This document shows positions 9,580 through 59,200 of a stretch of 64,000 bases of DNA, one piece after another. The notes beneath the pieces were generated by a model that saw only the letters and a program-made list of their open reading frames with translations, was not told the origin of the DNA and searched no databases. The position numbers and the translations under genes were made by a program. The stretch covers positions 8,804,001-8,868,000 of the forward strand of contig CM114271.1 in assembly GCA_050084515.1 (NCBI GenBank). The letters are read 5' to 3'. The first letter of the stretch is position 1, and each line of letters begins with the position of its first letter. This DNA is from Blasia pusilla. Its lineage: Eukaryota.

Positions 9580-10918
9580 TATTGATAAAGGACTGTCTTG
9601 GACTAGTGAGAATGGTGTAAAAGAGGGAAAAGATTGGAAAATAAGTTAGAAGAAGAAGCGCGGGTGCTTCGTAAGAAAGACCGCAGTAAGAATAGTAGTG
9701 AAGACTGTCAATGAAGACAGGGGAAGGCTTCTTTGTAAAGAAGACTGAAAATAGTCTTTGCACGAAGATTGGGTACAAAGAACGAAGAGCGAAGACCCAA
9801 GAGCAAAGACTAAGAACTCTAAGAAGGAAGAGGATGAAGCAAAAGAAGTCAAAGAGTCTTTCGGAAGCGGAAAAGTGTATTAAGAATAGGGAGAGAAAGA
9901 TAGGAAATGTTTTAAAGGCAACGGAGTGAAAGAAAGTAGAAAGGAGGACTCTTTGCCGCAGCAGAAGGATAAGAATCTTCACGCAAAGATAAGAGCGCGA
10001 AGATAGGACTGGGAAGCGGAGACTGCGAAGAGCGCGAAGACTGTGAAGACTGAACCGTTGCGGTAGTTTCATAAGCCGAAATTGGAGCGGCGTAACAGTT
10101 AAGAAGGAGCGGAAATGAATCGCCAACACAACCAACCGACTTAGGAAGATGGAGGGTTGGACAATCTGAATGGAGAGAGTAGGAGTAGCAATTAGAATTC
10201 TAGATTAGAATAGGAAGATCAATCAGAGTTATAAAAGGCTATTCAAAGAGTAAATCAGAAGAAGAAGGGATCATTCCCTTATGTCTTGAATTCCCCAATA
10301 CTGTTCCGAGTATCTTGAGTTTTTCTCAGCAATCTTGATAAGTGTGTAAGAAGTTTTTTTGAGGGATGATCCAAGCTGAAGAGTCTTTTACTTTCTAAAG
10401 CTTGTAATACTTTTCTAGTTCTTTCCACTCTTTGATGCAAAAGAAGACTCTTCTCTCATTCTTTCTGATGTGCGAAATTGAATGTGGATCCTATGGGGCT
10501 ACAGTAGAGATGAGAGTTGAGTCTTGTAGTTTCAGAATTCCAGAAGATAATCAGGAACAAGCGTAGGAAAGTTGTTAGACAGTGAGTAACCTGCCATGAC
10601 AGATTTAGTTCTGAAAGTGCGGTGAGCCGCCATTCTTGAGGTCTCTTTGAGGTCTTCGTGGAGCTTTGTTATTCAAGATTCACAAGAGTTTTCATGTGCA
10701 CTTGTGAAGAGTCTTTTCCAAGAGGGAAGAAAAACCTTTTATTCTTTGGTACTTGTAAGACAGTGTCGTTGTAGTTAGTGAAGCATTTTAGTGAAGAAAG
10801 AGTTTATTCTTGATATTCTTTATAAAACCTCTCTTTACTCAGGAAATACTGATCTCTTGGGAATGAACTTTATACTTTGTGATAGAAAGAGTATCTTTTT
10901 CCTAAAGTTGTACATTAC
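9580..10918. mobile_element. LTR (same family as 13182-14473), left part missing at the MULE junction
   Basis: Collinear with 13350-14473 and ends TTGTACATTACA. It abuts the integrase fragment at 10919. Confidence 0.8.
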
Positions 10919-12356
10919 AGGTCATTTTCACCGTACTTTTTGCTCTTTGGGAGAGAGCCACATTTACCTGTAGCTTCAGCACGTGACGTAGAGGTGTTAG
11001 ATCTTGATGATGCAAATATGTGGGTACAAGCGTGTTCTCAGAGGGCGGAGATTTTTCGTAGAGTTATGCCCATGGCCTTTGAGAACTTAGCTATTTCTCA
11101 GCATAAGGATACATTGAGGTACGCGACCGTTTGTGGAGGAGGTTATCGTCTAGGGATTAGGAGGTCTCATCCTGAAGATTACGTATATTTATAGTAGGCG
11201 GCATCCACGATGCTAGATGTCACTACAGGGCGCACGATCCTACGTGTGCCCGAGGTATTACCGACCGGAGTCCTCATGTTGGAAGGGCGGGATGGTATGG
11301 TTTGGAAGGATCATGTGCCCAAGTGTGCGCCATGTCACCTTCCGAACGTGGACGGGATAGTTGATCCAAGCTTGGCAGTGGTATCTGTAGAGGTGAGGTG
11401 TATGTTGTGCGGATCTGCGAGGGATGCATCCACCATGTTGGTATGTGATGGTTGTTCTCGAGTGTGGCATATGTCATGTCTGACGCCCCCCTCTTGATGT
11501 AGTTCCCACAGGACGATGGATATGTCCGAGATGTGTATAGGGTAGTAGGTCATGTTAGGGAGATGTGATATTTTCTATCTGGAGTTAGGGGGATCCAACT
11601 GCCAACTAGGGGGGCGGTTGTGTGATCTCCATCTATATGTTTGAGTTGATTTCTGTACATGTGTGGATCTCCCCGTGTGTGGGGAAGATCGGTGTTGTGT
11701 GGTGTGGATGTGACCAACGATGTGTATGCGCACGACAGTTGTCACATCCGAGTAGTCGATAGGCCGAGATCTATCGTGGATAGGGAATAGAAGCCAGTGG
11801 ACAATCTTGAGTCTAACTTTGTCCCGAGGTGTCGGATAAGGTTGAGGATAGGTCTGTTGTGTCAGGAACATCATTTCTGACAAATTTCATGTTGAGGTCT
11901 TTCACAACCGAGTGTCTTGTTGAGAAGGTCATCCATCCTTGATAACCTGTGTGCATAGGTCATCAGGAGGATAGCTATTTTTAGGGGAAGAGCCTTTTGG
12001 CTCTTCCCAACCCTATATAAGGGAGGAAGATGGCTTTCCCAAGCCATCTTTCTCATGTTGGGCCGTTAGAGTACCTCTCTTGTCGTGTGTAAGATAGAAC
12101 CAGGGTGTTAGCGTATCGATTTCGTGAGAGCACAAGATGGACGAGGCTCGATATGCCGATGTAGATTAAGGAGTGGAGTTTTAGGCAGGGACAGCCATTT
12201 TTACTACTCTTTATTTTTGTTGTGTGATCTCCATGTATATGTATGAGTTGATTTCTGTACATGTGTGGATCTACCCGTGTGTGGGGAAGATCGGTTTTGT
12301 ATGGTGTGGATGTGACCAACGATGTATGTTGTGTAGCAATGTGTATGCGCATGACA
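10919..12356 (+). mobile_element. 3' part of a PHD-integrase Gypsy-type element (relative of 42029-51796) with a B-A-B terminal structure
   Basis: FSPYFLLFGREPHLP...TLRYATVCGGGYR integrase C-terminus. PHD finger CMLCGS..MLVCDGCSRVWHMSCLTPP..WICPRC (11398-11536). PPT AGGGGGGCGG ~11608-11617. Repeat B at 11619-11737 and 12221-12356. Confidence 0.85.
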
Positions 12357-12385
12357 AGGAAATCAACCTCTAAAGAGGGGTGAGT

Positions 12386-35341: not shown

Positions 35342-36324
35342 GTTTGCACAATCACTATCCCTCCCTTTTCCACCTCGTATGTAGTAGAGACATGCCTATA
35401 GATCAATGGAGTGGAGACATGCCTATAGATCAGATGGACCCTCCAAGAAATGAAACTTCATCTGTTTGGGTTCTACTTTCCCAACTATGTCAGCTTTGGC
35501 TACCTTTAGATCAAGCATGCACTCCGATACCAACTTTTTCCCGATAAACAAGGGAAAATTTTGAGGAACTAAAAATAAATTGCCAAGAACAATGCTTGAA
35601 AGCCAATTTTTTTACCACTTTGGGCCTTAAGGGTTTAATACTCGATGAAGACCTTTTCTGCATTCCAATGAGAAGGGTGTGAGCTTTAAGAGCTGATTTT
35701 ACACATTAAATCCATCAGGTGTATTTGACCCTAAAACGAACCCCTTCATACATGTCCAACCAAAGCTAATCAAGCCAATGAGAACAGGAAATCGAAGTAA
35801 TGAGATTGATGTTGCTACATGTTCCATTCGGGAACATCCACTAACCAGGGAACTAAATGTGGGTAGGCAACGGCAGGGAAGATCAGAGCATGTAAACTGT
35901 CCACGAGATGGAGGAAATACTCCTTTTAACTACATCCAAACTGTCTTCCTATTTCCAAGTGAACCCCACGAAAGGAAAAACCTCCTTTGAAGCTATCAAC
36001 CAGTGCATGCGAGAATTTCCAGTGAGGAACATGGCACAATGTCTTCATGTGCACAATCAAGCCAACATATGAAGTTGATTTAAGAACATTCTACTTGAAT
36101 GCAGAATGAGCGTACATTATCTTGATCCACCACAATGTAGACACATAATTTGGAAGTTGTTTCTTTCCAACTCAGACATAAAAAAAACAAGAGATTATAA
36201 CCACAACACATTATCAAACTCGGCGAGTTTAACTACAGATTTTTCACTCAAAAGAACTTCGGTACATAGCTATGAATACTCAGTAACAATACATGTCCGT
36301 GAAGTGACCAACAATGTCATTCAA

Positions 36325-36550
36325 GTGCAATTACCAAGATTAACTACAGTATACATTGACAGGATTCCAAAGCCTATGTACACAAGGAGTATTCAAGATG
36401 CTAGTGAACAAAAGTAACATTTTGATGATGCATCGTAGTGCAATTACCAAGATTAACTACAATATACATTAACAGGATTCCAAAGCCTATGTACACAAGG
36501 AGTATTCAAGATGCTCATAAACAAAAGTAACACTTTGATGATGCATCGAA
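36325..36550. repeat. Tandem duplication, 113-bp unit x2
   Basis: GTGCAATTACCAAGATTAACTACA starts at 36325 and 36438. Confidence 0.85.
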
Positions 36551-39611: not shown

Positions 39612-42600
39612 ACCAATATCGAGTTGTGCCTAGTCCCGCGCTTCTCGTCTAACAATGAACATGCGCGAGCATCGTCTCCCTTAGCCGCGCCTGGCTGTCC
39701 AAACTCCGCGGCCTCCTCCCGCTTCCCCTGCCGTCCCACCTCCACCTCGCTTCTCCGCTCAGGTTCTCCCGCTTTGCGTTCTCTGCTTACTCCCGAGCTT
39801 TGCATGAACTCTACTTCCGCGTTCACGGAATTTACTCCGTGTAACCTATGCTCTTACCACTGTTTACGGCCTCCACAAGTAGGTTAAAATCAAATGCTAC
39901 TAACCGGTGCTCGTGCGATGCACGGTGAAACCGGCCCCGTCACCCTTAACTTAATTGCTACCTCCGGTTGAACTTGTCACGTTTCAGCGCCCTGACTCTA
40001 GTATAGGTTAGAAATGAGACACATCCTTGTTTAGCAATACTAGTGGGCACTTGGGAGAGAGGGACAAATCTATAGTATTAAAAGAGGAGAGGGTCTTGGC
40101 CAGGAGCTCCGCGGCATGACACGTGTCCCTCAAGAGACGCCCACCGCATGACACATGTCTCTCACCACGAAATCACGGCAAGACACATCTCATCTGTAGA
40201 TTCATTTTTCATCGATCCGATCTTGTAGTGCGCCTACTCTCCTTGAACGTTAATCTTGTTGTTGCGGAAACGTGAGTTCAGTAGGTCACGCTCTCAACGT
40301 TGATCTGCATCCAAACACGCACTCTGGTTAGTCGGGTCTTGTATCAATCAGCGGGCTAACTTTCCGAGTTCTCGTCTCGGTCTCTCATTGTCGCGCCCCT
40401 ACTCTCCTTGAACGTCAATCTTTATTGTTGCGGAAGCGTACGTTCAGTAGGATACGATCTCATCGCCGATCTGCACTCAAACACACACTCTCGTTAGTCG
40501 GGTCTGGGCCAACCAGCGTTCCAACCCACCAAGTTCTCAACTCGGCGTCTCATCAAGCTCAACCTTCCTTACTTCCTAGTTTCCAAAACATGGCAAGTCC
40601 TTCAAGACTTGGAACAGACTTCCTGATTAGTCCAGGAACCTAAAACGGCACTTGCGTGCCTAGCGATCCCAACTCTTCAACGGACCTCGTGTGAGTTCCA
40701 AACCGAGACCCAAGTAATTGAGTCGCGGGGTGAAATCCAAGAGGGATGTCTAAAATCGCCTCCATAGACTTGGTTTAGGTTTTCCAACCCAACCCCAAAC
40801 TCTCGATCCGTTCCATGCCCTTGCGCCGCCCCGTGGCGCGCAAAGTGGGGTTCGAGTTCCAAGCACTCTTGGAGACCTTCCCCCTTACTAGTACTTCTGG
40901 GATTCTCGAATAACCCCCCATCTTTGGAAAAGGAGGGTCGGGCCCTTCATTGTGGCCCTCAACCCGACTCTACTTACAGTTGTTTCCAGATTGTTTCCCA
41001 GCTGTTGCTTATGCGTTTGCAAAGATCTTTAGTGCGTTTGAAGTGTCTTTCCATAAGCCTTCTAACGCACCCTTTTTCAATCCAAACGCATCTTGGCGCT
41101 AAAAGTTATGGCCATAAATACAATCGGAAAGTCTCAAACGCTAGTGGCGTCCCAAATCCGGATTCCTTCCTTTGGCAACCCACTTTCTAGACTCAACTCC
41201 TTTCAAGTCTTGTTCCGCGTTTGGTACAGATTTCTCAGTCGCGACCACAACATCTGAAATGCGAAGCCTCAATTGCGTCCCGTCTCTTGTCTCTTCTTTG
41301 AGACCACTCCAACGCGCAAACCATCTTAGCGTGAGCCCGCTAATGTTCCGATGTTCCGCTTTGGCACTCGTTTGGTCATGAGGGTTGCGAAACTCACCCC
41401 TCTTTAGAGGTTGATGCCCTCATCAACGCAAACCTTTGTTATGTCAAGTTTCTTGGGCAGCCTACTCCTTGACATTGAATTGCGTTCTGGTGGCTAACCC
41501 GCAATTTCTCTTAGTCTACAGTTGTCGCTTTGCATCACTTAGAATTATTAGCCTCTCCTCTTTGATAAGCCTGGACTCGTTCCAAAGAACTAACCTATCA
41601 AATAAGCTAACTAAGTGTGCAACCTTAGACTCTTCTGGCTCATTCTTGTAAACATCACACATGTTTACCTAGTCTACAAATCGTACTATTATTGGGTCGC
41701 TCCCATATTCGACTTAGGCGCGTCACTAAGTTTACTTATGTAGCCACAAGTAAGATCACCCCAAGCCCCAAGACAGATTCATCTGCCCCACAAACGCTAG
41801 GGCGAGCCCAAGTGTAATCCAACACAAGATCCTGTTCCGAGTGCTTATCCACATACGAGCTCTCACCTCAAATATTCCTTGTCTATCCTCTTGACTTACA
41901 TCCTAAGCCTATGATGAACGACTCATAGCCATGCACTACCACATACAAATTGCAATCAACTCTGGCATCGAATCTCCAAATCCATGCATTCCTTTATTGC
42001 AACACTAGCATGTTCTAGTTACAACGGTTGTCGTGCGAATCCACATCGTCATACAACATACATCGGTGACATACCATACTCACATACATACATAACATAG
42101 ACGAGAGCATCCACAAACATAAGTGTACCACAATTGAAATCCGTGAAAGACCTACTGTCATAAAACACGTATAGAATCACATACAATCGAGCCAAACCCA
42201 CTCCACGATGGGAGAATCTAGGTCGAAGCTTGCGGGAAACACCATAGCCAAGAGCTCTACTCACTACCAAGGCTAACTCCCAACGCAACAGGCTCAACTC
42301 AAAGAATCGACGTTTTCTTTGGGTGCACTCCATACTATATCCTCCAACCTAAGAGCGGGCCCCTTGGGAAAGTCACCCCCAACTGAGTAACCCCCAACCC
42401 TATGTATGAAACCGCATCTCTACCTAGCCACTACGGTCCTACATAAGGTATGGCCTCTACTAGCACACTATACTCTACGACATAATCCGTATGGTCATGA
42501 CAGCTGTCATGCGAATCCACATCGTCATACAACATACATCGCTGACATACCATACTCACATACATACATAACATAGACGAGAGCATCCACAAGCATAAGT

Positions 42601-42784
42601 GTACCACAACTCGCCCCCCTAACTGGCGGTTAGGTCCCTCTAACTCCCAGGTAGCCCTATACATCTACTACATGCTATACACCTTTGTGGGTGCACGAAT
42701 CAGAAGGTCGGGTGCTAGGTTGCCCCATCGTTAGTCGCACATCTGTAATCCATATCATGCAAAGATCAAGTCATGTACCTCTCC

Positions 42785-45700
42785 TAAATACATCGAGGAC
42801 AAACCCACCTTCCAGTAGGAACAACATCCATACGTGGAGTCAAACACATCATGTGTCAACCCCTAGAACATCGATCACACACCAACATACGGGCTGCTTT
42901 ACCAGCAGACCCATACAACATGCACCTCAAGCTAGCACATATCATGGCTAAGTTTGGGTCAACAGTACCATCCACATTTGGAAGATGACATGATGCACAA
43001 TTACGCACATGGTCCTTCCAAAAAACTCCATCACGACCCTCCAACATGAGAACTCCAGAAGCTAACACCTCGCTCACTCGTAAAATAGTGCGGTCTGCCG
43101 TCACATCCAACGTTGTCGGTGCAATCTGCTGCAATTAGACATAGTCCCCCACATGGAACCTACGAATCGATGGTCGATAACCTCCACCCCGAATGGTTGC
43201 ATACCGCAAGGTATCTCTATGTTGAGCAATGGCAAGATTCTCAAAGGTTGTTGGCATAACTCTCCGAAAGAGCTCTGCCCGCTGAGAACACACCCTCATC
43301 CACATCTCTGGGTCATCAAGGTTCACCACCTCACTAGACTCCCAAAGAATTGATGTTGGCAAGTCTGGATCTCGGCCGTATAACAGAAAATAAGGTGAGA
43401 AGGAAGCCAAGGATGCTTGGCGACTGAACCTATACCCCATGGCTAACCATGGCAATTGAATATCCCTATCTCCAAGATGCCCCTTTTGTAGGCCATACTT
43501 GCGCAATGCCCTCTTCACCGTCTGAACCACACACTCAGCCAAACCATCTGCCTATGGATGATCTCGAGACGTGGTCTGATGATCAATCAATGCCTTGTCA
43601 TACAAGACCTGAAACTCACCCTGAAACTCTCTCCTCTGGTCGGTCAACACTTCATCTGGTGCACCAAAATGACTAAGCACTCTATCAAGAAACGCGTACG
43701 TCGTTCCCTCACTTGCCTTCTCAGGTAATGCCACCAACTCAATCCACTTGGAGAAGTGCTCCACCATCACCTACACATATCGATGATGTCGTACAGTCAA
43801 CGGTAACGGTCCCGCAAAGTCCACACTCCAACAGTAACCCAACCCCATAATAGGCAAGGGGTGTAACTGTGGTGTAGGGGTATTGAATGATGCCCTCACC
43901 CGGTCACAAACCATACAACCTGACACCAACTGCTGCACTTGAGTATGCATGCCACGCCACCAATAATGACCAAGGAGTAAGCTATACGTACACTTTACCC
44001 CAAAATGTCCCAACTCCTCATAGGCATGTTGCACAATGCGCTCTCTCTGAGCCAAATGCGGCACTACTCGTACTCTACCATCCTCCCACACACGGAGAAT
44101 ATGTGTTCCCTCCAATCGATACCTCTTAGCACGTTGAAGAACACGGTCTCGCTCCTTGGCACTCACTATGCCGGCACCCTACTCGTCCAGTAGGGAACTC
44201 CAACACCAACGCATCATCATGAATATCACGCTGATCCGCACGCCATCTCCAACCTTAGGATCTCAAGGTGGCCATCTACCCCTCGACTAGAGTAAGATGT
44301 CATGTGGTCCTCCATACTAGAGTCCATCCCTAACCAACATAAAAAGGGGGATGCATGCCAACCTGGAACCATCTCCTCATCAACCTCGCCATGCCATCTA
44401 GCCCTTGTTGCATCCTCTTGGCTAGTACATGGGTTCCTTCTCAATCCATCAGCATCAAGGTTGGCAACTCCAAGTCTATGTACCACCTGAAAGCCATACT
44501 CCTGTAAGATAAGAGCCCACTGTGCAAGCTTCCCTGTAAGCTTGTCAGACTCTATCAACCATTTGAGCGGCTGATGATCGGTAACAAGGGTAAACTGTGT
44601 GCCAAACAAGTAACACCTAAAGTGTGCCACAGCCCACACTACTGCCAAACACTCCCCCTCGTATGAACTATAGCGCGACTCCGCTGCATTATTCGAACGA
44701 CTTGCATAGGCCACCACAAACTCCATATGCTCATCATCATGTTATGTCAACACCGCTCCAAGTCCCAACCTACTCCAATCAGTGTGTAACTGAAATGGGC
44801 ACCCTTTGATAGGTCTCCAGTGCCACTCTTGATCAGATTTCAGAAATTGGTTCAAAGGCTTTGCCATAGCACTAAATCCCTTCACACACATCCAATAGTA
44901 GTTTGCCAATCCCATGAATGCCCGAACTCTACTCACATCTACCGGACGCGGAATAAGTGCAATATCCTCCACCTTTGCTTGCTGAACTCCCAAACCACCT
45001 GGATAGATCACATGACCCAAATACTCAACATCCTCATTGAAGAACTTACACTTTCTTGGATGCAAACGTAGATCATGAGCTTTCAACGGCTCAAACACCA
45101 TCTGCAAATGTATCTGATGCTCCTCCACCGTGTTACTGAACACCAAGATATCATCAATGTAACACCGAACAAAATCCAACCCCGCTAGGATCCTGTCCAT
45201 CACTCACTGAAACTCGGCAGGTGCATTCTTCAACCCAAAGGGTAAGAATTTCCACCGGTACAAACAATCCTTGCTATGAGAGTTGACATCCCAAAATGCT
45301 GTCTTGGCCTTGTCACTCTCCCGAATCGGCAATTGATGGTATCATGCCCGAAGATCCAAAGTACTGAAAATCTTTGCGTATCCCACCACATCAAAGATCT
45401 CCTCAGGTGTAGGCATGGCATACCTATCGGCCTTGGTTTGCCGATTGATAGGACGGTAATCTCCACATATCCGCCTATCCGTATAGTTGCCATGCATATC
45501 CTTTTTAGCAGGCATGACAATGGCTGATGCATACTCTCCATGGGAGAACTCCACTAATCCAGCCTTCAAAAGGTCCAACGTCCTACTCTGAATCATGTCC
45601 CTCTCCATATCACTATATCGGTAGGGACGACGGAAGATTGGAGTATCACTAGCCAAATCAATCCGTATACCGGGTCCAACCAGAGCACCCAACTCCTTCA

Positions 45701-45840
45701 TGCTAAAGGCAAAACAACTCCTATAAGCACGTAGGAACTGTGTCAAGCATCGTTTCTCACCTCCCGTAAGCTTGGGCCCAAGTAATGGCTCCCAAGTCTC
45801 CTCCATTGGCACACTAGAGGGAGAGGACGATGCCATTGGC
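42785..45840 (-). pseudogene. RT, RNase H, integrase and C-terminal PHD finger of the nested element
   Basis: RICGDYRPIN, CYIDDILV, YEGECLAVVWAV..TDHQPL, HFGVK..CMVC, SVDFAGP..TDQ, then CML.GS..MLVCDRCSRG*HMMCLTP..WVCPRC. Confidence 0.9.
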
Positions 45841-46089
45841 TGCTACGCAACCCCCTCACAAGATGGTACACCCTTAGCTACACCATCATCTGAGCAAATA
45901 ACTCCTCCACCAGCATGAGCAACCAACTCCACATGCCCAGCCATTACATCCCATTTACTCCAAGGATGCAAAATACTACTCTCCTCGCCCCCAGCCGATG
46001 CCTCTACCGTCCCGGTAGCCATCGAGCTCATTACAAGGGGTGGAAGAACCATCGACATAGTCCGAAGTCGACGCTGCTCAGCCATACCA

Positions 46090-47040
46090 AGACTCAAAAT
46101 CCAAGTCAAACAATTCAGGTCCATGGCCTGACCCAACACATGACCTCGTGAAGCCTCATAAATGGAAGAAACCGATGTCACACCAATAGAAAATCCCATC
46201 GCACGCTCTCTCTCATCAGCGTTAGGCTCCACCAACTGTCGCACATGAGAATCCCATACAAGCCCGGGACCACCTTCCCTGTAGGCATGTGACGAGGGAA
46301 AACTCACAAGTGTGGGGAGTGCCATCCTAGGATGGCCCACACGGTTCACCACTGCCATGGGTGACCGATCAATAACCCTCACCACCAGAGAAAGTCGCCC
46401 AGTATCCAAGATACTATCCATTGTAAGGCAAGGTTCCCGTTGCACTGCATCATATGCTCAACGTAGAACCTCCCTAGGCAACAAGTTTGTCCACCACAAG
46501 CATGGGCGATGTGCACACGAGCCAACTCGCGCTGCATCCAACAACACCGCTGGTCCAATCCAAGACCACACCTCATGAACACTCGCCATCATCCGGGACC
46601 GAGTGTCACCCAACAATGGAACATTCTCCAGAATGTAAGCTGGAGCACGTGCCTGATGAACCTGAAGATGTCATAACACCGTAACATCTCCCAAAACAAT
46701 CGAGACCTAGGGTCGTGTAATCCCTCACCACGACCAGCATGTGTATGACCCTGACATGGCCATCTAGCAATCACCAAATCCACAGGACCAACCCTCTCAA
46801 GGTCTTGTGCCCCCAACAATGCAATGTGTGACGGCAAAGCACGCTGGTACCCACGAATAGCCGATGGCGGCAAAAACTCAGGATATCTCCGCATCAACTA
46901 ACCAATATGTCGGGATGAGACTCTCTGGGCCGTCTCATCTTGCTCCACATACACGTATCTCCGCACAGGAATACCAGCCTGCAACACTATAGCCAAAACA
47001 GTGCTAATCCCACCAAAGAGATCTAACACACAAATGGCCT
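46090..47040 (-). pseudogene. DNMT3-like C5-cytosine DNA methyltransferase domain within pol
   Basis: Motif I VLDLFGGI; II RYVYVEQD; IV GPVDLVIARWPCQG; VI YILENVP; VIII DAARVGSCAHRPCLWWTNL; IX-X ERERAMGF...RGHVLGQAM. Has a stop at ~46898 and frameshifts. Confidence 0.92.
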
Positions 47041-47459
47041 CCGGCGGATACTGCCATACAATGGGTGTAGTATCCAAAGGGGATAACCCAACTGGACCAC
47101 AAGTAGGAGTCCGCCGTGGGGCCTCCTCTTCCTCGTGAGGTATAACATCCTCACACCAAGCCTCATGCACTAGGCGATCAGCCTCCTGCCGTAGTGCACC
47201 GCCTGAACTCCAAAGTGGCACATCCAACGATGAGGATGCCATTGCTGCAAAACTAGGGAATTCCTCTACCTCCTCATGCACAGGAGAATCCATAGCAGAA
47301 ACATTACCCTCCAAAAAGTCTCCTATCCAAGTGACTACTCCACTAAAACCAGCCACATATGCTAACACTGTTGGCATATGGAAGACCCTCCTGGTCGAGC
47401 CCCATAAATAAATCTCACAGGAACTTGGCTCATACGTCCATCCTTGGACTACCAACCAG

Positions 47460-49930
47460 GTCTATAAGACGCTGTCTCAATCCAGTAATCCATCTGAAAA
47501 CCCATTGGGTACAATACTGCTCCTCCAACTAGTACATCATACGACTCGGCTGATGTGACCACTGCAGGTACTCCCAATCGGGAGCTATCAATCGCATGAT
47601 CTGGTCTCAACTATACAGAAAACTTCTCCCGTGTCATGAATTGAGACCTATCATTGGCTCCTCCAAGTGATGTTTGAATCTGGAATGGGCAAGGCTCAAG
47701 CTCTGACCTCCGAATACCCAAACCAATACATGCCGCCTTTCCCAACATCAAAGGTTGGGCACCAGAGTCTAACAAGACTATATTTGGTCTATACAATTGT
47801 CATGTAGGACTCACCAATCGGAATATCCCACTCCGGTTGTCCAACATACATACACCATGTGCAAGCCTCTCACAATCAATGGCTGGCCGGGCTGGTGATG
47901 CATCCATCTTCACGGCTGCTGCCTGCCAAGTAGCACTGGTACTCAATGCTACACCTGACATAGAGGGCCGCTCCACCGCAACACCCTCATCCACCTCAGC
48001 ACGTGTAGCAGTAATACCTCCACTTTCACACAGCGTGGCTGCTAGCTGAAATACAGGAGCTAAGTCAACTCCTAAAGCCATTAGTTCCGTGGCTGAAAAA
48101 ATGGGGATCCTAACATTGAAGTTGCCATCCGCAATACTGCACTGGATGCTGCATTCGTGTCTACTACACGCGATGTAGATGCCTCAGTCTCCACTATCGG
48201 CTCAATAGGCTACGTAGGAACCATGGATGGAGTTCTAAGCACCTCCGACAACAAGAATGATTGGGGAAGCCTAGCCTGCCTCCCAGCCTCACCCCTCTAT
48301 GGGTCCAACTCCAAAGTAACACCACGTGGCTCTGACGCTCGAGTGGCTCCTCTCGTAACTGCAGCTGATGCCTCAACCTGTGCTGCACTCACCATATAAG
48401 AGAGATCATCCCCTCCATAAGAGGTGGAAGCCCCTGCTCCCGAACCTGATCTATGCTGGATACCAGCCATAGTAGCCAACTTTTGCTCCAACTGCTCAAT
48501 CCTGGCAGCCATAGCCGACTCTGTCGTAGTGGTAGGGGTAGCCACCGTAGGCTCTCCAACCACTGGTCCACCTCTACCACCCCTACCACCTCTACCACCT
48601 CGGCCTCTCGGAGCTACTCCACCACGTCCGCGGCCTGATCTCAACTCTGGATGAAGATCAAAGCAATGCTCTCAAGGATGGCCTGGTCACCCACAATGAT
48701 CACACTGAGTTGGGGCCGACTGAGGCCCATCCTCCAAAGTCCGTCTCCCATCCTCTTGGGGATAAAACTTCCTAACATGATCACCTCCACATGTCCAACA
48801 TGATTGTCCTTGCTGCGGGGCAACAAATGAAGGAAATGGTCTCTACGCAAGTGTCCCTCTAGGACCTGATTGAGGTCGTGTGTACCCCCCACGACTCCCA
48901 CTACTACTACCACCACCACTACTACGAGACTGTGAGGTGGGTTGCTGAACACGAGAAGTAGTAGTTGTATCCCTATAGAATGCGGATGTCAACACTCTCT
49001 CCTTCACCATGTTAAGCTCAATCTTCTCAGATAGAGCAAACACATGGGTCAATGTGGGTGAATCATCACTCATAAGAGTAGCATCACTTACCCTGCGGCG
49101 CAACTCTCTGTCCAAGATCCCATACCAAAACTGGACTGCCTAAGCCTCAGTCACACCTTGGGTAACTGAAATCAAGTGTCACATACGAATGTATGCCTCA
49201 CGAAGCCTCTCACCAGTCTTTCGCTCAAATTCTTGAAGACTCCTCAACTTCTCTATCTTCACTCCCTAATAGTTCTTCTTTAACCTCTTGAAGAACTGTG
49301 CAACTGGGTTGAACGATGGTAGGGCACTAGTACCTCCACTAGTACCCCCACTGGTACCTCCATGGGTACCTCCACTGGTACCCCCACTCCGGCTTGTACT
49401 CGTACCACTCAACGTCGGGTTGGCTGGCATAGTAGGAGCACTACTACCAATACCACCATGGGTGATAGACACATAGCCTGGAGACCAATATTATCTCCAC
49501 GCCTCAATCTCAGCAACATGGTCCTTCCTAAACTCATGGTAATCATCCATGGGTGGTCCTCCAAGTCTTTGAAACAACCCTTCAAGCCAAGAAGGGTGTA
49601 AACAACGTGGCGTTCCGCAACATCTGCATATCACACCACGTATCAAACTCCTGCATGAAGTCCTCCAACTCAATGGTGCCCACTGCACCCTAGTATCGTC
49701 GTGGGCCCTTCATGGCCCCATATATTCCGTCCATGTCCCAAATCAATGGAGATGCAACACTCGATAACAACGTAGAAGACTCGTTGTTTGGAACACTCTC
49801 GTCCTCCTCTTCATCAACCGTCGGAAGTGGAAAAGGTAGCCGATACCTCAATCCACTCTCTGTAAAACCACCACGGTCCCCAACCATACCACCAGACAGC
49901 TCCGTGATGACCAACGCCGATGCCGCACCA
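47460..49930 (-). pseudogene. gag and aspartic protease of the nested element
   Basis: Zinc knuckle CDHCG*PGHP*EHCFDLHPELR followed by an RGG-rich tract. Protease VLLDSGAQPL. 12-bp repeats encoding GGTS at ~49325-49390. Confidence 0.75.
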
Positions 49931-51853
49931 CCACCAAATTACCACCACTAAGTAACCAAGTGACGTCGATGTCGCTGTACTATTCTAGCTCTACTAGCTA
50001 TGGGTGTAGGCAACCTAACCTGTCATCACCACAAGAAGCCTCCCACGGTCTACTGGTCATCACTCCAGCCTCACTACCGGTAGCACACAGGAATAACACT
50101 ACTCTGGAAATTAGCGTCAACCCTAACAATGGGCGCGCAAGCAAGAAGCAACGATGGAGGGGATCCAAACACAAGAAGTCCAACGACAATCCTCCAATCG
50201 CAAATGGAAATCAAGGTAACACAATTCACCAAACGTGGCGCCCCCTGAATCCACAAAACCCACCACACAAATCTAACGCAATAGCTACTCCGCCGCGGGT
50301 CGATGACGTACTAGTCGAACTCGCAGCACATGAAAAATATCACCTGCATGGAGAGGCTACACCGTACTACGCGCTAGAGGTCCATCAACCAAAAACCTGA
50401 GATGCATAAAGCGCCTAACACCTCTCCGAACAACACCAAATGAGCTACACCAGTGTGTACACTAGCATAGTTAAGAACTCAGCAGTTAAGTGTCTTCCAA
50501 GCAGAATAGTCCAAAGATGGGTGACCAGTTATGCAACACTCAAATCACAAATCTTGAAAAAACTGCCTCATGCCTAAGCTTGCTCCTTGCTCCTTGCTCC
50601 TTACTCCTTACTCCTTACTCCGCCTCTCACGCCCACTCGCCCTGAGCTACCACGAGTTGCCTCAAAGCCTCAAAATGCTCGAGACATTCCCCGTTCGCCC
50701 CGTTCGCCACGCTACGCCATGCTTTGCTATGGAGAGAGGCCCAACCAGGGTGCCCCCAATGGGATAGGCGTCTCCAACAATGAACGAGTCACCAACCAAC
50801 CAGCCCCTCCGATCCGATGTCCTTGAGCTAGTCCGCAAAATTTAGATCAAAAATTACTCCACAAATACTCAACCAAAATTGAATCTGTTTCAACCAGAAT
50901 TCAATTGACCACCATAGCTATCTCTCCACAAAAAATTAGCTACAACCGAGCTGTGTACTCCAAGCTAAAAATAAGACAAACTTGCTGTCCATACACATCC
51001 AGAATCGCAAATACGACATCGCTTCCGCCCAGTTTCATGCACACAGAAATCCGCAACGCTCCACACACTCGAGCATAAAGCTTCACATGAGATCACAATA
51101 CAAGTAGCAACATGAACCTCTCACCCGATCTGGATGAACTTCAACAGAGCTTCCGCACTCCAAGCTCTCCACATCAGAAAACCGTCGAACACGAACCAAA
51201 ATCTTCAATCCTTGATAACTTCCAACTCCCTTGACGAAATCCGGCGATCTTAAGCACGTTGGAAAGCTCTCAGCAAGGTCCTTCTTTTACAACCAACCAC
51301 GCACCAGATTCACACCTCCAACATAGGCCACAAGCCACGAACATCCACGGCTGAGTATACAATCAACTCTAACCAGATCCTATTGATCCACAATCGAAGC
51401 TACCATCGATCTACTTCAGTTCTTTGAGAGAAATCCGTGAAAGAAATATTGTCATAAAACACATATAGAATCACATACAATCGAGCCAAACCCACTCCAC
51501 GATGGGAGAATCTAGGTCGAAGCTTGCGGGAAACACCATAGCCAAAAGCTCTACTCACTACCAAGGCTAACTCCCAACGCAACAGGCTCAACTCAAAGAA
51601 CTGACTGTTCTTTGGGTACACTCCACACTATATCCTCCAACCTAAGAGCGGGCCCTACTGGAAAAGTCACCCCCAACTGAGTAACCCCCAACCCTATGTA
51701 TGAAACTGCATCTCTACCTAGCCACTACGGTCCTACATAAGGTATGGCCTCTACTAGCACACTATACTCTACGACATAATCCGTATGGTCATGACACAGC
51801 CTTTGGCCCAAGATTCCAATGGGTACAAGTCATGTTTCTAGCTTCTCCCCGTA

Positions 51854-54800
51854 CTAACGTATGTGCTTCTCTTGCGTTCGCTTGAAGTCTCGCAACAACT
51901 CTTGCGTGTGTTCCAAATCCGCCTGCGCAATCCAAGTCGCCTCCTTCACATGGTAGCCCTTCCATTTAACCAAGTATTCATACTTGTTGGCCCGACGCCT
52001 CGAACGTAAGATGGTCTCCACCTCAAACTCCGGCTCTTCATTTATGATCACGGAGTGCGGTCTCACCACCTGTCTCCGCTCGAAACTTCCATTATCTTGA
52101 AGATATTTCTTCAACAATGACACATGAAAGATCGGGTGAATTTTGAACTTGTCCAGCAGCCCCAATATATACACATCCTCGAACGGGTTTGCCACAATCA
52201 CATACGGTCCAACATACTTGGCAGACAGCTTCGCAGACAACTCTTTTGGAAGAGTGAGATTCTTCACACTCAACCACACTTGCTCTCCAACTTGGAATCG
52301 TACTTGGCGCCGACTCTTGTTAACATGCTTAACGTACCTCATTTGTTGCAAGACTTCGCCTTGCTCGCTCTTCCCATTCTCGCATTTCTACCAAAAAACC
52401 TTTTGTCATTGCTTGTCGTGTTCGTGCCAATGTAGTACCCTTCGAAAGGGCTAGGTCAAGAGGCCCTTGTGGCTCTCATCCATTCGCCAAGAGAAACGGA
52501 GATTCTCCAATTGCAGAATGCTTGGTCGAGTTGTTGCAGTACTCCGCCATGCTAAGCCACTTAACCCAATCTCGTTGATCAGCACTGACATAATTCCTTA
52601 AGTACTGATTCACGATTGAGTGTACCTTTTCAGTCTGTCCATCCATCTGTGGGTGGAAAGCCGTACTGAAACTCAGCTTGGTCTTAAACCTCCTGAACAA
52701 GTGCTTCCAGAAAGCACTGGTACACTTTGGATCCTGATCTGAAACAATGCTCCTCAGAAAACCGTGAGCACGCCACCAGCTATCCAAAAACAGTTGCGAC
52801 GTCGTATAAGCCGTTGCGGAAGCCACCTTCGGCACGAATCTCGCCAACTTGCTAAACCGATCAACAATCACAAGTATAGCGTTGTATCCCTCAGATAAGA
52901 GAAGACTCGTGATGAAATCCATACTCACACTTTGCAAGGGTCCTTATGGGATCGGCAAGGGATGCAACAAGCCTTGTTTCTTATCATAAGAAACTCTATT
53001 TGCTTGGCAGGTCACACAAGTCTTCATATATTGAGCAACATCCTCTTTCATGTTGGGCCAAAAAAACCGGTTCGACAGAACAGCCATCGTAGATTTCTCT
53101 CCTTTATGTCCTGCTCAGGGTCCTTCGTGACACTCCGCTAACACTTTGGTTCGCATCCTGCCTTGCCCCACATAGATCCTACTCTGCTTGAACCTTAGTA
53201 AACCGTGCCTTAAACTTATGTTGGCCACCTTCTCACCCTGCTTCAACTTCCTCAGGTACTCCCCTGCGTGAGCGTCCTTCATATATCCTTCACGAATGCT
53301 TCTTTCCAGGCCTGTTTCTTTGGGGAACATTGCTCTCAAGACTTGTGTCGTCGATGTCATGTGTTCCTCCTTGCAACTCAATGCATCTGGAATCACATTA
53401 TCTCTACCTGGCTTGTGAATCAACTCAACATCCATCAACGCCAAGGTATCATGCCATCGCATTTGTTTCGGTGTCACTCGATCCTGGGTCTCAAAATACT
53501 TGAGTGATATATTATCGGTGAACACTCGAGTCCTGTGGAGCCCTAAATAATTCCGCCACTTCCTCAAGCAATCGACCACCGCGAACAACTCTTTCTCGTG
53601 AGTGGGCCATCTCCTTTCAGTATTGCTAAGCTTACTGAAAGTCCAAGTTGTGTTGGAAAACTTTGCTGTCCAATCCGTGAAAGGTCTCACAATTCCCAAA
53701 AAGTTTTTCACATAAGTGCGATAGAACTACACCGCACCTATGAACCTCCTCATCCCCTTTACGGTGGATGGGGGTTCCCACTCGAAAATCGCTTTCACCT
53801 TCTCCATGTCTAGACTAACGCCATCTGCACTAACCACGTGACCCAAGAATTTGATCTTGCTCAAACCAAATTCGCTCTTCTCTACATTCGCATACAGCTG
53901 ATTCTCCCTTAGCTTAGACAATACCGCTCTCACATGTCGAACGTGCTCCTCTAAGGACTTTGAATAGATAAGTATGTCATCAATGTAGATGATAACATAC
54001 TCATCCATTTCCTTGTGAAAAATGGATTTCATCAATGTGGTGAACGTCGTAGGCGCGTTACATAGACCGAAAGGCATCACTACAAACTCAAAGGAATCGT
54101 ATCTTGTCCTACACGCATTCTTCTCCACATCTGCCTCGGCAATCCGGATCTGGTAATATCCTGACTTCAAGTCAATCCTACTGAAATATCTCGCACCTGC
54201 CAGCCTACCAAAGAGATCATCTATCCTCGGAAGAGGATAATTGTTCCGAACTGTCACTTTATTCAGCGCACGATAATCGACACACAACCTCATCTTTCCA
54301 TCTTTATTCTTCACAAAAAGAACAGGTGCTCCATAAGGTGACTTGCTAGTCCTAATGTAACCCTTTTCCAAGAGCTCACTTAACTGCCTTTTCAACTCAA
54401 GAAGTTCCTCCTGATTCAACCTATATGGTGCTTTTGAAGGTGGTTGGGAACCGGGTATGATCTCTATCTTATGATCGACGGCTCTATGTGCTGGCAACTG
54501 AGTCGGAAGCTCATTTGTCTAGACATCCTCAAACTCCTTGACCACTTTCTGGTGTGGTTCTGGGATTCCCCCTTGAAGCAGTGTCCTGATCTCTACATAT
54601 TCTGCTTGTAGCCTCCTCCACTTGTCTCATCAAGCAGAGAAACCCATCCTCCAACTCGGTCATGCTTCTCCTTGTAATCGAGTTCACCAACTCCTTTTTC
54701 GCCGGAACCTCACGGACCAACCGCACTAGCCGTTTGCCTTTTAGCAAGACGCTCAACCTCAAGGGTCTATGTCTTAACTCCACCACATATGCATCCAGGA

Positions 54801-56218
54801 ATGTATTCCCCAAGACTCCATCAATGCCATCCATTTTGCACACAGTGAAATTCTTCTTCAACTCGAATACCCCGCATCCTACGGTCAAACCCAAGACCAA
54901 CTCAGAAGTCCGATGAGACTTGCCTCCTGCAAATCCTACTCGAATGGGCTCATCCGCCTTAGAGGTAGACAACCACAGTTCCTTCACGATTCTCGAGCTT
55001 AGGAAGGAGTCCGAAGCAGCTGTATACACGAGCAACAACACATCGCGATCAGCAATCTTGGATCTTAGGTACACCAAATTGTGCGTCCTCTTGGTGACCT
55101 AAAGGGACGTCTCGAGATCACCCGCCAACAGATGCTTAGTAGCAAACGCAATCATACTCCCATTACTAACCTTCAGTTTCAAACACACTTTCGCTAGGTG
55201 CCCCGGTTCGCCATAGTTGTAGCATATGACCTTGCCGTTCCCTCACTTAGAGTGTTGTCCTCCTCTCGACTTCGCATGAAGTTCCACTTGTTTTGCTGCC
55301 GGGGCATACGACTCTCCTGGATCGTGCAGGTCCCCACTCCAAACTCTTTTGAACGTCTCCTTATTTTTCGACTTCTTCGAAAAACCTTTTGGGCTCAAAG
55401 GGTTTCTGGGTTTGGACTTCATCGCCCCCAATCCGCTCCGCTAGCTTCAGAAGATCTGCATAGGTATCTGGCAACGTGAGCATTCGGTAAAGGGCCTTTT
55501 TAGCACTCGGCTTGAGTCCACTAATGAAGATAGTCTTCTTCGCGTGCTCATCCATCTTTGTAAGAGACGTGAATTTTGCACTAAACTCCCTCACATACGC
55601 GCTTAAGGAACCACTCTGCCGCATCCGCATGCATTCCACCGTGTCGCGCAACCCTTGGTACTCCGGAGTGAATCGATCACCAATCAACACCTTAAACTCC
55701 TCCCAACTCAAAGGTGACTCGTCGGCCAGATATTCCTCTCGTTGAGCTGTCCACCGTTGTAGCGCATGATCCTTCGGGAAAGTAACGGCTACCGTCACCT
55801 TGTCCTGCTCAACTGCCCTCTGCGCCTCGAAGTACAATTCCAATTCCGTAGGGAAATCCTTCACTTTTCGCGAGCGCCCCACTCCAGTGAATGGCGTGGG
55901 AAGGTTTGTCTTACAGAGCTTTTTGCCCACACTCGGAGTTCGGACGGCCTCTAACTCTGCAATCCGCTTGCTTTGCTGGGACATCTACTCTATCAACAAC
56001 TTCAACAAGTCCAACGTCTGCCTTGACTCAGTCGGTTCCCCTGGGTTTGGGCTCGATGGCCCCACGGAAGGATTCGCCTCTAGAGCGTCCTCACATCTGG
56101 CGTTCAGCTCTTCGAGAGTCTTCGTCTCCTCCATAACATCACGGTCCGGCATTGGTTCCTCTCTCGATTCAGGTTGCTTGATTCAGCGCTTCTTGGGTTC
56201 TTCTCCCTCGATCGCCAT
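51854..56218 (-). pseudogene. gag-pol of the chromovirus (gag, protease, RT, RNase H, integrase, chromodomain)
   Basis: RT RLCVDYRALN...YIDDILIYS; RNase H HEKELFAVV..TDN; integrase SMDFI..VDRFSK..SDQD; chromodomain EFEVETIL...YLVKWKGY..ATW. Broken by stops and frameshifts. Confidence 0.92.
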
Positions 56219-59200
56219 TTTCAAGCAAACTCACTTAGATCTCCTCCTCGTTTCTTGCGTCCCTCCTCGAGCGTCAGAGTCTAGCCGCTACCTTGAGTTT
56301 TCCCCAAGCGTACGGTTGATCCCACGACCCCAAGTTCTCGCTCACCAAGGATTAGCTCTGATACAACTTGTCGCACCCCTACTCTCCTTGAACATCAATC
56401 TTTATTGTTGAGGAAGTGTACGTTAAGTAGGATACGATCTCATCGCCGATCTGCACCCAAACACACACTCTCGTTAGTCGGGTCTGGGCCAACCAGCGTT
56501 CCAACCCACCGAGTTCTCAACTCGGCGTCTCATCAAGCTCAACCTTCCTTACTTCCTAGTTTCCAAAACATGGCAAGTCCTTCAAGACTTGGAACAGACT
56601 TCCTGATTAGTCCAGGAACCTAAAACGGCACTTGCGTGCCTAGCGATCCCAACTCTTCAACGGACCTCGTGTGAGTTCCAAACCGAGACCCAAGTAATTG
56701 TGTCGCGGGGTGAAATCCAAGAGGGATGTCTAAAATCGCCTCCATAGACTTGGTTTAGGTTTTCCAACCCAACCCCAAACTCTCGATCCGTTCCATGCCC
56801 TTGCGCCGCCCCGTGGCGCGCAAAGTGGGGTTCGAGTTCCAAGCACTCTTGGAGACCTTCCCCCTTACTAGTACTTCTGGGATTCTCGAATAACCCCCCA
56901 TCTTTGGAAAAGGAGGGTCGGGCCCTTCATTGTGGCCCTCAACCCGACTCTACTTACAGTTGTTTCCAGGTTGTTTCTCAGCCGCTGCTTATGCGTTTGC
57001 AAAGATCTTTAGTGCGTTTGAAGTGTCTTTCCATAAGCCTTCTAACGCACCCTTTTTCAATCCAAACGCATCTTGGCGCTAAAAGTTATGGCCATAAATA
57101 CAATCGAAAACTCTCAAACGCTAGTGGCGTCCCAAATCCGGATTCCTTCCTGTGGCAACCCACTTTCTAGACTCAACTCCTTTCAAGTCTTGTTCCGCGT
57201 TTGGTCCAGGTTTCTTAGTCGCGACCACAACATCTGAAATGCGAAGCCTCGATTGTGTCCCGTCTCTTGTCTCTTCTTTGAGACCACTCCAATGCGCAAA
57301 CCATCTTAGCGTGAGCCCGCTAATGTTCCGATGTTCCGCTTTGGCACTCGTTTGGTCATGAGGGTCGCGACACTCATCAAGCTCAACCTTCCTTGTTTTG
57401 CGATCTACAACACGGGTAAGTCTCGCAAGACTTGGGATAGACTTTCTGGTCGGTTCAGGAACCTTAAACGGCGTTTCGCGCCTGGCGGTTCCAATTGTCG
57501 GATGGACATCGAATGAGTCCCTAACCGAGACTCACACGAAGTGAATCTCGGGTTGGAATCCAACTTTGGTGTACAAAGTCAACTCCCTTGGATCAGGTTT
57601 GGGTTTCGAGTTCCAACGCCAAACTCCCATTCCATCCCGTGCCTCTGAGACGCCGTTTGGCGCTCAAAGTGGGGATTCGTGTTCCAAGACATCTTGGAGA
57701 GACTCCTCCCTTACTAGTACTTGTGGGGATCTCCGGGGTCCCCCTACCTTTAGAGGAAGACACCTGGGCCTCTTCAATTGGCCCTCAACCCGATTGCTCT
57801 CACATTCATTTTTGGCCAATATCTCATGCATTTGCTAAGCTCTTTGACGCGTTGGAAGCGTCTTAAGATAAGCTTTCCAACGCGCCCTTATTTGTCTCAA
57901 ACGCATCTTGGGGCTAAACGTTATGGTCTAAAACACAGTCAAATTCCCCAAAGGCTAGTTGTGTTCCAAAACTGGTTCTCACCTCCTTGGCAACCAACCT
58001 TTTAAGACTCAACTCATCTCAAGTCTTGGTTCGCGTTTGGTCTAGGTTTCCTGGTTGCGACCACTTACGCACGAAACGCACAACTCTGTTCCGCGTTTCG
58101 TCTCTTGGAATTTTCCAAGAGACCTTTCTAAACGCCTCTCCAAAGCGCAAACATTGTAGCGTGAGTCGAGTCCACGCTACGATGTTTGCACTTCTGATGT
58201 TCCGTTTGGCGCCTATTTGGTGTTGTTTGGTTATGAGGTTCGCGATAGATATGGGTTGTTTTTGGTATTATACGCATATACGATTTCGTATCAACCTTCC
58301 CCCACTAATCTTAATGAAGACTTAGGATTTGCCATTAAAGATGAGATCTTGGAGTCGATTATGGATAGTTAGGATTTCGTCGCCGCCAAATTTTATTTGA
58401 ATGCAAGGTTCACTTCAGGGTCTCTGCAGGTTTAGTATTTATAGTGTTGGCTGAGTCGCATCCGGAAAGTATTCAATTTGCAAAACTTAGTCGTGTGGAT
58501 TTGCGTGTTAGTATTAGAGTATCAAATTTACACAAGTGTGTAGTGGTGCGCTTCATGCTACTTAGGGGGCACTTCATACTACTTAGTGGTAGAAAACTAT
58601 GAACTTTTGTTTTAGAGGACTATTGTTTGCTATTCTATCTTTTTTCCAACTCGACATTTTCTTGCTATATACGTCCAAAGTGTGAGCATGGTTACACACC
58701 CAATCTGCTCAGTTCTCACCAAGTTTTACATGTATTTGCAGGGACGAACGGATTGGATTTCCACCCAACAGAGTAAGATCTGATGTCTCTGGCCTTTCTT
58801 TGTATTCAACTCGTCCCGCTTTGCTTTAGCTTTCTTGAATATAGAAACCTGCAAAAGAGAAACATAGTTAGTAAATGAAGACTAACAGCTCTCTTTATTA
58901 TACAGAGCCGTGCAGAAGACAGGTGAGACATGATTGTAAGCGAACAACTATGAAATCAGCCCAAGCCAAGGGAAAGAAAGGAACTCTCCCATGTAGCTCA
59001 AAAAACTTCTATGGTGTAAAGCCTGCATATACAACATCTTCAGAAAGACCAACGTGGTCACCGATTTCACAGAACGATTCGATCAGGTTGAAGTCGAGTC
59101 CAAAAGTTGCAAGCAAGGTCGACCAAGAACGGGGATAAGATTAGGTTCCAATAGTGAGCCAGAATTTGGGGAGGCCAAGAGGGATTCTCTTCCCTTCCCA

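Follow-up and report, generated by a model that had tools for sequence, protein, structure and literature searches.

A DNA methyltransferase-carrying Gypsy retrotransposon of Blasia pusilla with split direct repeats, and its possible origin as a circularly permuted provirus

Retroelement orders are assigned by the layout of the terminal repeats, and split direct repeats of the form A1...B1-A2-B2 are reported to define the tyrosine-recombinase elements of the PAT-like and Ngaro type (PMC4157794, PMC7192593). A 9.77-kb element in a 64,000-nt stretch of Blasia pusilla DNA (GenBank assembly GCA_050084515.1, contig CM114271.1, positions 8,804,001 to 8,868,000; hereafter the window, to which all coordinates refer) breaks this rule, since it combines Gypsy proteins, DDE integrase included, with DIRS-type repeats. 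How could such an element have come by such ends? From the arrangement of its repeats, we consider it probable that A...B-A-B represents a normal provirus that has been circularly permuted. The layout itself is already published: KnitGypsy-Dnmt3 of Klebsormidium nitens is described in a figure legend as having a DIRS-element repeat structure and Gypsy domains (de Mendoza et al. 2018; PMC5890265, Fig. 4c legend). A preliminary description of the Blasia locus, which took A-BAB ends to be foreign to Gypsy elements with a DDE integrase, is therefore out of date on this point. What is new here is that the ends are fixed by empty-site contigs, that a target duplication is absent, that there is a candidate self-primer, and that the element can be read as a permuted provirus.

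The element lies on the minus strand. Its overall order is A1, internal region, polypurine tract (PPT), B1, GC, A2, AA, B2, with the following parts.

51430..51796, minus strand: A1, the 5' terminal repeat; first bases TGTCATG at 51796, last bases GGATTTC at 51430
42610..42620, minus strand: PPT AGGGGGGCGAG (aggggggcgag), directly abutting B1 and conserved in a relative at 11608-11617
42505..42609, minus strand: B1; first bases TTGTGG, last bases CATGACA
42498..42509, minus strand: palindrome TGACAGCTGTCA (TGACA-GC-TGTCA) at the B1|A2 joint, perfect over 12 nt with a 2-bp spacer
42136..42502, minus strand: A2, aligned with A1
42029..42133, minus strand: B2, the 3' terminal repeat; last bases CACGACA at 42029

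In blastn comparisons, the A copies (42136-42502 and 51430-51796) were 95.65% identical across 368 nt (E 2e-167) and the B copies (42029-42133 and 42505-42609) 97.1% identical across 105 nt (E 4e-44). These matches, together with direct reading of the sequence, bear out the A...B-A-B layout and the coordinates first proposed for it. The element begins with TGTCA (start of A) and ends with GACA (end of B), and its A2|B2 joint reads GGATTTC-AA-TTGTGG. At the locus itself, B is absent directly 3' of A1, and the nearest TGG is about 24 nt downstream, not abutting A1, so the earlier statement that the 5' A is followed by neither B nor a TGG-type primer-binding site (PBS) also stands. We considered TGGTAGCTTCGA, 24 nt 3' of A1, as a tRNA-type PBS and set it aside because it does not abut A; no tRNA genes for comparison with it occur within the window. 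The element therefore shares with Gypsy the PPT before the 3' repeat and the TG...CA ends. It lacks the two identical terminal long terminal repeats (LTRs) of that group, having A alone at the 5' end and B-A-B at the 3' end, and it has instead the A1...B1-A2-B2 split direct repeats of the DIRS order (PAT/Ngaro). Both B copies are rich in TG (0.19-0.20 TG per nt, versus 0.07-0.10 in A, the internal region and the window).

The proteins are those of Gypsy. The gene order is gag, protease motif, C5 cytosine DNA methyltransferase (DNMT), reverse transcriptase (RT), RNase H, DDE integrase and PHD finger, as follows.

47800..49938, minus strand: presumed gag region of broken open reading frames (ORFs), without a Pfam match; a Marchantia relative carries the name CCHC-type domain protein in its source
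47611..47799, minus strand: ORF whose translation has an LLDSGAQ motif, which we take to be aspartic-protease-like; no Pfam match
45843..47461, minus strand: C5 cytosine DNMT region in several frames (PF00145 at 46589-46897, E 6.7e-5)
44742..45842, minus strand: RT (PF00078, E 6.9e-14)
44226..44741, minus strand: RNase H (PF17917, E 9.3e-28)
43135..44178, minus strand: integrase with H2C2 zinc domain and DDE core, in three frame pieces (PF17921, E 4.5e-14; PF00665, E 1.5e-8)
42856..43134, minus strand: integrase C-terminal region running into a PHD finger, the finger broken; 70% identical to 11201-11461 of the relative

Five of the 17 minus-strand ORFs scanned first had Pfam matches (DNA_methylase, RVT_1, RT_RNaseH, Integrase_H2C2 and rve), which gives the Gypsy Pol order of RT, RNase H and DDE integrase with H2C2 on the minus strand. 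The other 47 ORFs of at least 60 aa, on both strands, gave nothing above threshold, with two chance-level matches at E 0.035 and 0.044. The integrase pieces keep VDFAG, LTDQ and GLAE, presumably the DDE triad. No tyrosine recombinase was found in any of the 64 ORFs (at least 60 aa, both strands) at E up to 0.01-0.05, nor in the seven family proteins scanned, and the preliminary description was correct that the element encodes a DDE integrase and no tyrosine recombinase. The many frame breaks indicate that this copy is dead. Extra letters are present at 44817-44818 in the majority of RNA reads (loose ends: 55 and 77) and in contigs of two DNA runs, X4 and X5; in the X4 contig, 64 letters separate the two sides. 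Relative to other copies, this one has thus suffered a deletion in the region of the RT/RNase H boundary.

The DNMT, which the preliminary description had missed, places the element in a family. Searching with the DNMT piece yielded 32 longer proteins, among them proteins of Marchantia polymorpha (about 1000-1300 aa, 57-65% identity), one from Sphagnum and unnamed ones from metagenomes, with identities of up to 69%; the matched proteins carry PF00145. One Marchantia protein, P0024, has DNMT, RT and RNase H in a single chain, and a search with its DNMT region returned 27 proteins, including ones from Calypogeia fissa and Sphagnum fallax. Two of the 27, unnamed and of about 2015 aa, have RT, RNase H, integrase and a PHD finger. 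Family members, P0043 (2015 aa) among them, retain the H2C2 and rve integrase domains. In P0043, Pfam places the PHD finger at residues 1605-1649. The C-terminal region of the relative aligns to residues 1541-1628 of P0043 (44% identity, E 7e-19), beside and into this finger. No protein named Klebsormidium was among the matches of either DNMT search. A metagenome scan with the DNMT piece gave 72 pattern matches, of which one was confirmed (L001, 3463 bp, 62% identical, frame-broken and without element ends), and a scan of viral contigs gave 26 pattern matches, none of them confirmed. Judged by these protein similarities, the element belongs to a DNMT-carrying Gypsy family found through bryophytes. 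It is very probably an old, frame-broken copy of the type named 'streptophytes (Gypsy-DNMT3)' in a 2026 preprint (10.64898/2026.05.21.726589).

A second, incomplete member of this family lies in the window on the plus strand.

10892..12356, plus strand: 3' fragment of the relative (integrase C-terminus/PHD, PPT, B', GT, A', B')
11608-11617, plus strand: PPT aggggggcgg, adjoining B'
11618-11737, plus strand: first B'
11740-12218, plus strand: A', starting with TGTCA after the GT spacer
12219-12356, plus strand: second B'

The two B' copies are 95.3% identical across 107 nt, and blastn and sequence reading agree with the preliminary description that the relative has a PPT-B-2bp-A-B layout. When 17 pieces of the element were compared with the relative by tblastn, the integrase C-terminus and PHD region, from 10892 on, matched alone. 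The relative is a 3' fragment: it shows PPT-B-A-B and is uninformative on the 5' A. The earlier claim that its repeats are not obviously similar to A and B holds in so far as A' and B' have no blastn similarity to A and B, but the final 20 nt of B and B' agree by eye at 17 of 20 positions despite the divergence elsewhere. By eye, too, A and A' alike start with TGTCA and the PPT region is conserved across both copies; the B|A joint of the relative is GACA-GT-TGTCA. B' is TG-rich like B, though the sequences are unrelated (0.18-0.20 TG per nt in B and B', versus 0.07-0.10 elsewhere). On either side of the relative there is a direct copy of about 1.1-1.3 kb (9584-10919 and 13351-14473; 73-79% identity), and the two copies interrupt a chromovirus-like LTR at 12391-14636. 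The surroundings of the relative may be an internally deleted or chimeric element.

The complete copy is nested in a chromovirus, a further feature missed earlier.

40388..57376, minus strand: host chromovirus, complete and canonical, carrying the insert on the same strand
57376-56368, minus strand: host 5' LTR, 97.7% identical to the 3' LTR across 1009 nt
55984-51857, minus strand: host gag, protease, RT, RNase H, rve, and SH3 plus chromodomain (Pfam)
51856-51797 and 42028-41397, minus strand: host 3' untranslated region (UTR), split by the insert
41396-40388, minus strand: host 3' LTR

The host has TG...CA ends, the PPT AAAGAGGGG, flanks TTGA/ATGA, and the PBS TTGTATCAGAGC, which we take to differ at one position from the initiator-Met type. 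A scan of the 58 ORFs of at least 110 aa outside the element gave Pfam matches for six, all six at 51857-55984. Contigs of three DNA runs were mapped on 41397-52400, one of the runs (X4) being from a second organism. An empty-site joint running from 42026 directly to 51799, and so skipping 9772 nt, was present in one X5 contig (depth 267, with 44 nt on the shorter side), in X4 as a single 444-nt contig (41858-42026 plus 51799-52047), and in X1 as four low-depth variants. Host copies without the insert therefore exist, and the outer edges of the insert fall no more than 2 nt from where A1 starts and B2 ends. A-internal-B-A-B was inserted as one unit. Given these joints, the layout cannot stem from misassembly or from a later deletion or duplication. 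In other copies of the element, A is likewise followed directly by CTCAAAGAACT, the sequence 3' of A1, and not by B (four X5 contigs with a loose end at 42135), and the ...GACAGC|TGTCA joint is found again in one X4 contig (loose end at 51796).

Read in the sense of the element, the sequence is CCAAAGGC|CGTTGTAAC where the site is empty and CCAAAGGC-TG-[TGTCA...GACA]-AC-CGTTGTAAC where it is filled. The insert is thus TG + element + AC relative to the empty site, and the ambiguous CGGT/CAGC duplication suggested previously is not real. The TG and AC at the edges are unexplained, and the insertion site varies among host copies. We tried models of 4-, 5- and 2-bp duplications for the flanks by eye; each needs at least two extra changes. 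A and B together differ at 17 of 471 aligned sites between their copies, compared with 23 of 1009 for the two host LTRs (Fisher p = 0.17); the age of the insert is thus not in conflict with that of the host. Both DNMT-Gypsy copies of the window sit in a chromovirus 3' UTR, in the same orientation as the chromovirus or chromovirus-like LTR: the relative terminates 30 bp (12357-12390) and the complete copy 632 bp upstream of the 3' LTR. This shared position could be chance in a repeat-rich region, or a target preference, since in this family the integrase is followed by a PHD finger. A B'-like end remnant upstream of the host PPT was considered and rejected as too weak, the good match being limited to 36 nt of the host PPT region (97%).

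Three features on the minus strand bear on how the element is primed.

51592..51604, minus strand: candidate self-primer TCAGTTCTTTGAG, the predicted RNA 5' end, in perfect 13-bp pairing with 51428-51416
51416..51428, minus strand: candidate PBS CTCAAAGAACTGA, beginning 1 nt 3' of A1, with T at 51429 between
51628..51633, minus strand: TATA-like ATATAG, a putative promoter element that precedes the candidate self-primer by about 30 nt

The 12-mer core of this complementarity occurs with zero mismatches at only these two places in the window, and with at most one mismatch there are three matches versus 0.69 expected. By our arithmetic, about 5e-6 perfect 13-mer complements to the bases just after A would be expected by chance within the 367-nt A. 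The pairing appears in both the minimum free energy and the centroid folds of the 216-nt leader (51610-51395). A' of the relative contains a perfect hairpin whose 3' arm is preceded, at a distance of about 27 nt, by TATATAA (12014-12020), and in both copies a 5' arm resembling the site after A precedes the complement or 3' arm. Self-priming is described for the Tf1/Sushi, Tcn1 and TAR lineages (PMC6317226), and we put the chance that the features seen here reflect Tf1-type self-priming at about even. The tRNA-independent priming suggested in the preliminary description is accordingly plausible as regards the complement, which is perfect and begins 1 nt after A1; the RNA 5' end is a predicted one. 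Its further suggestion, non-canonical strand transfer, is still an inference. Two hairpin arrangements were seen alongside. Inside A, at 51585-51615, CAAAGAAC-AGTCA-GTTCTTTG forms a hairpin; its 5' arm being like the site after A1, the 3' arm can pair either locally or with 51428-51416. In A' of the relative, the TATA box stands between two perfect hairpins of 10 bp each (about 11984-12007 and 12027-12050).

The edges of A and B suggest where reverse transcription would begin and end. Since B starts after the PPT, as U3 does, and A ends 1 nt before the PBS, as U5 does, the repeat in terms of reverse transcription would be B-A. The A2|B2 joint would then be U5 end to U3 start, like the junction of a 2-LTR circle. 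Run X1 contained variants of this joint, GGATTTC-T-AG-TTGTGG and near variants (five listed, depths 7-34); the T-AG form has the base before the proposed PBS abutted exactly to the bases after the PPT. Taken with the PPT and PBS edges, these variants make the A|B joint look like two reverse-transcript ends joined together. The preliminary description had instead likened the B|A joint to an end-to-end circle junction. It is true that two integrated ends are abutted there, but A2|B2 is the better match to a reverse-transcript circle junction, and B|A is better read as an integrase site.

For the permuted provirus we propose a cycle of five steps, in which we infer the start of transcription, the self-priming, the circle and the cutting by integrase. 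Transcription would begin in A1 near 51604. The minus strand would be primed in the manner of Tf1 by the first 13 nt of the RNA on 51428-51416. With the PPT beside B and the PBS beside A, standard strand transfers would then produce a linear cDNA B-A...B-A with ends AGTTGTGG... and ...GGATTTCT, not TG...CA. Joining of the cDNA ends would give a circle internal-PPT-B-A-B-A-PBS-internal with two tandem B-A repeats. Finally, the DDE integrase would cut the palindrome in the PBS-side repeat, leaving a linear A-PBS-internal-PPT-B-A-B to be inserted. If both strands of TGACA-GC-TGTCA were cut after CA, the CA-3'OH ends would be recessed and the 5' ends would overhang by 2 nt, as in retroviral DNA after 3' processing. 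The PFV and HIV-1 integrases are reported to cut palindromic LTR-LTR junctions into 3'-processed ends (PMC1180852, PMC1905944). Only the A...B-A-B product would combine an upstream A bearing the promoter with a further A downstream, and so only it would be able to make a terminally redundant RNA. TG-rich B would lie downstream of the 3' A only, and we speculate that it may favour 3' end formation there. Permuted provirus and five-step cycle together make the best overall explanation that we have, and we regard its chances of being right as evenly balanced. That the circle is cut by the element's own integrase is a component of it that we hold somewhat less likely than not. More doubtful by a little is the extension that this is a Gypsy lineage whose reverse-transcriptase ends are uncoupled from its integrase ends, with linear cDNA ends that the integrase does not accept, an obligate 2-LTR-type circle and every integrated copy permuted.

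Several points weigh against the permuted provirus. Direct reading covers one complete copy and one 3' fragment, and a circle, a transcription start and integrase activity are not among the observations. At the one insertion that can be compared with empty-site contigs, there is no target duplication of 3 bp or more; canonical DDE integration is expected to leave a duplication of 4-6 bp. Random cutting of a 2-LTR circle should also yield A-B-A...B copies. The 216-nt leader does not fold better overall than shuffled sequences (z -1.47), and the A2|B2 joint variants are low-depth contigs of a single run. The RNA data are also awkward. They come from one raw run of the same species label (X22), whose reads are mostly 90-99% alike and hence from other copies. 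Reads were in element sense over 42131-51800, with depth near zero over B2, and fragment ends piled up at two places: 42342, with 7 molecules against a neighbouring depth of 9, and 51635, with 22 molecules against a neighbouring depth of 105. Each pile-up falls at about coordinate 161 of A, upstream of the TATA-like box and of the proposed start (about 194), and by depth arithmetic most RNA seems to stop at about 161. An RNA that began near 194 and received its poly(A) at about 161 would lack terminal redundancy. The pile-up may, however, be a break in homology between subfamilies instead of a transcript 3' end, because loose ends at 42611 and 42614 show a different B in the expressed subfamilies. 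In the stretch 42611-42647, RNA reads continue from the PPT into no fewer than two other sequences (in 38 and 26 reads), and upstream of 42647 a differing sequence was present in 75 RNA reads. The expressed subfamilies have the internal region in common and differ in their B repeats.

How else might the layout arise? One possibility is that linear A-internal-B-A-B cDNA is made directly by non-canonical template switches, with no closed circle, and is inserted by the DDE integrase through its TG...CA ends; the RNA might, for example, read through to include B2, or the B1-A2 joint might serve as a bridging template, as proposed for DIRS/PAT. The TGTCA...GACA ends are as an integrase expects, the B1|A2 joint holds both ends and could act as a template like the internal complementary region of DIRS-1 (PMC7192593), and B is TG-rich as noted above. 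Yet by our reasoning, standard strand transfers from PPT-B and PBS-A give no asymmetric product, RNA depth over B2 is near zero, and the target duplication is still absent, so we think this route unlikely. The absent duplication would instead suit an element of the DIRS/PAT/Ngaro kind, in which circular DNA enters the genome either through a tyrosine recombinase acting in trans or through host recombination at the short GC core, the DDE integrase being dispensable. The A1...B1-A2-B2 layout described for such elements is identical (PMC4157794), and the GC at the empty-site insertion point equals the GC junction spacer, which recalls the junction sequence shared with the target in DIRS (PMC7192593). 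Set against this, neither the 64 ORFs nor the seven family proteins contain a tyrosine recombinase, whereas the H2C2 and rve integrase domains are conserved across the family, P0043 included. The flanks GC-TG...AC-CG match the GC-core prediction only after two changes, moreover, and the GT spacer of the relative differs from its AG flank. We judge this route to be quite unlikely.

The two remaining explanations would make the layout secondary. If the true LTR were A-B (TGTCA...GACA), the 5' LTR would have lost its B and an extra B would stand before the 3' LTR. Such an LTR would have perfect TG...CA ends with inverted termini, but A runs straight into CTCAAAGAACT in the four contigs from other copies, the PPT abuts B and not A in both copies, the 13-nt complement begins 1 nt after A, and the published description of the family has the same layout (PMC5890265); this explanation is very improbable. 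An artefact of tandem insertion, unequal recombination or misassembly might be suspected in nested, repeat-rich surroundings such as these. It is hardly credible here, given empty-site contigs that join the flanks exactly at the outer edges of A1 and B2, a diverged second copy with the same 3' layout, and the same joints in contigs of other runs and of another organism.

Comparison with known systems puts the element between several of them. Like KnitGypsy-Dnmt3, it has a C5 Dnmt-type methyltransferase within a Gypsy Pol with DDE integrase (here PF00145, 46589-46897) and a DIRS-like repeat arrangement, the latter likeness resting on the published description; it differs in that its closest named protein matches belong to Sphagnum and to the liverworts Marchantia polymorpha and Calypogeia fissa, not to Klebsormidium. 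With PAT-like and Ngaro elements, it shares the split direct repeats, an internal joint holding both element ends and the lack of a visible target duplication. Those elements, however, encode a tyrosine recombinase and no DDE integrase, and the present element the reverse; PAT elements also have an adenine-type methyltransferase-like domain, whereas here RT, RNase H and integrase are of Gypsy type. As in Tf1/Sushi, Tcn1 and TAR, the 5' repeat contains a perfect complement of the site that immediately follows it and no tRNA-type TGG abuts, but those lineages have ordinary identical LTRs, and here the complementary stretch is the RNA 5' end by prediction only. The resemblance to the 2-LTR circles of PFV and HIV-1 is that a DDE integrase cuts the palindrome of abutted ends, here as part of the model only, with 2-nt 5' overhangs. 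In those viruses, the palindrome is the junction of reverse-transcript ends, while here it lies 104 nt inside the repeat, so that cutting would permute the genome. The spacer is 2 bp here, and that of the retroviral palindrome is 4 bp. For retroviruses, the 2-LTR circle is a dead end.

In the literature, judged mostly by titles and the beginnings of abstracts, we found no treatment of the mechanism of this layout, its primer site, end sequences or target site. A full-text search for the name KnitGypsy gave the 2018 paper alone, and the parts of the 2018 text consulted contain no mechanism, primer site, end sequences or target-site data. Elements of this kind will be mis-called by LTR finders. 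If the permuted provirus is correct, it would be a natural case of a retroviral-type integrase using a circular or joined-end substrate, long debated for retroviruses, and a simple structural bridge between LTR elements and split-direct-repeat elements. The extension to a whole lineage would also mean a convergent route to the split direct repeats of the tyrosine-recombinase elements. The predictions of the model are directly testable in liverworts, mosses or Klebsormidium.

Tandem duplications are also present in the window. Units of about 165 bp end the chromovirus LTRs at 40223-40553, and further duplications of 243 bp x2 (98%), 324 bp x2 (89%) and 119 bp x2 (94%) lie at 19449-19930, 28908-29551 and 36324-36555, respectively.

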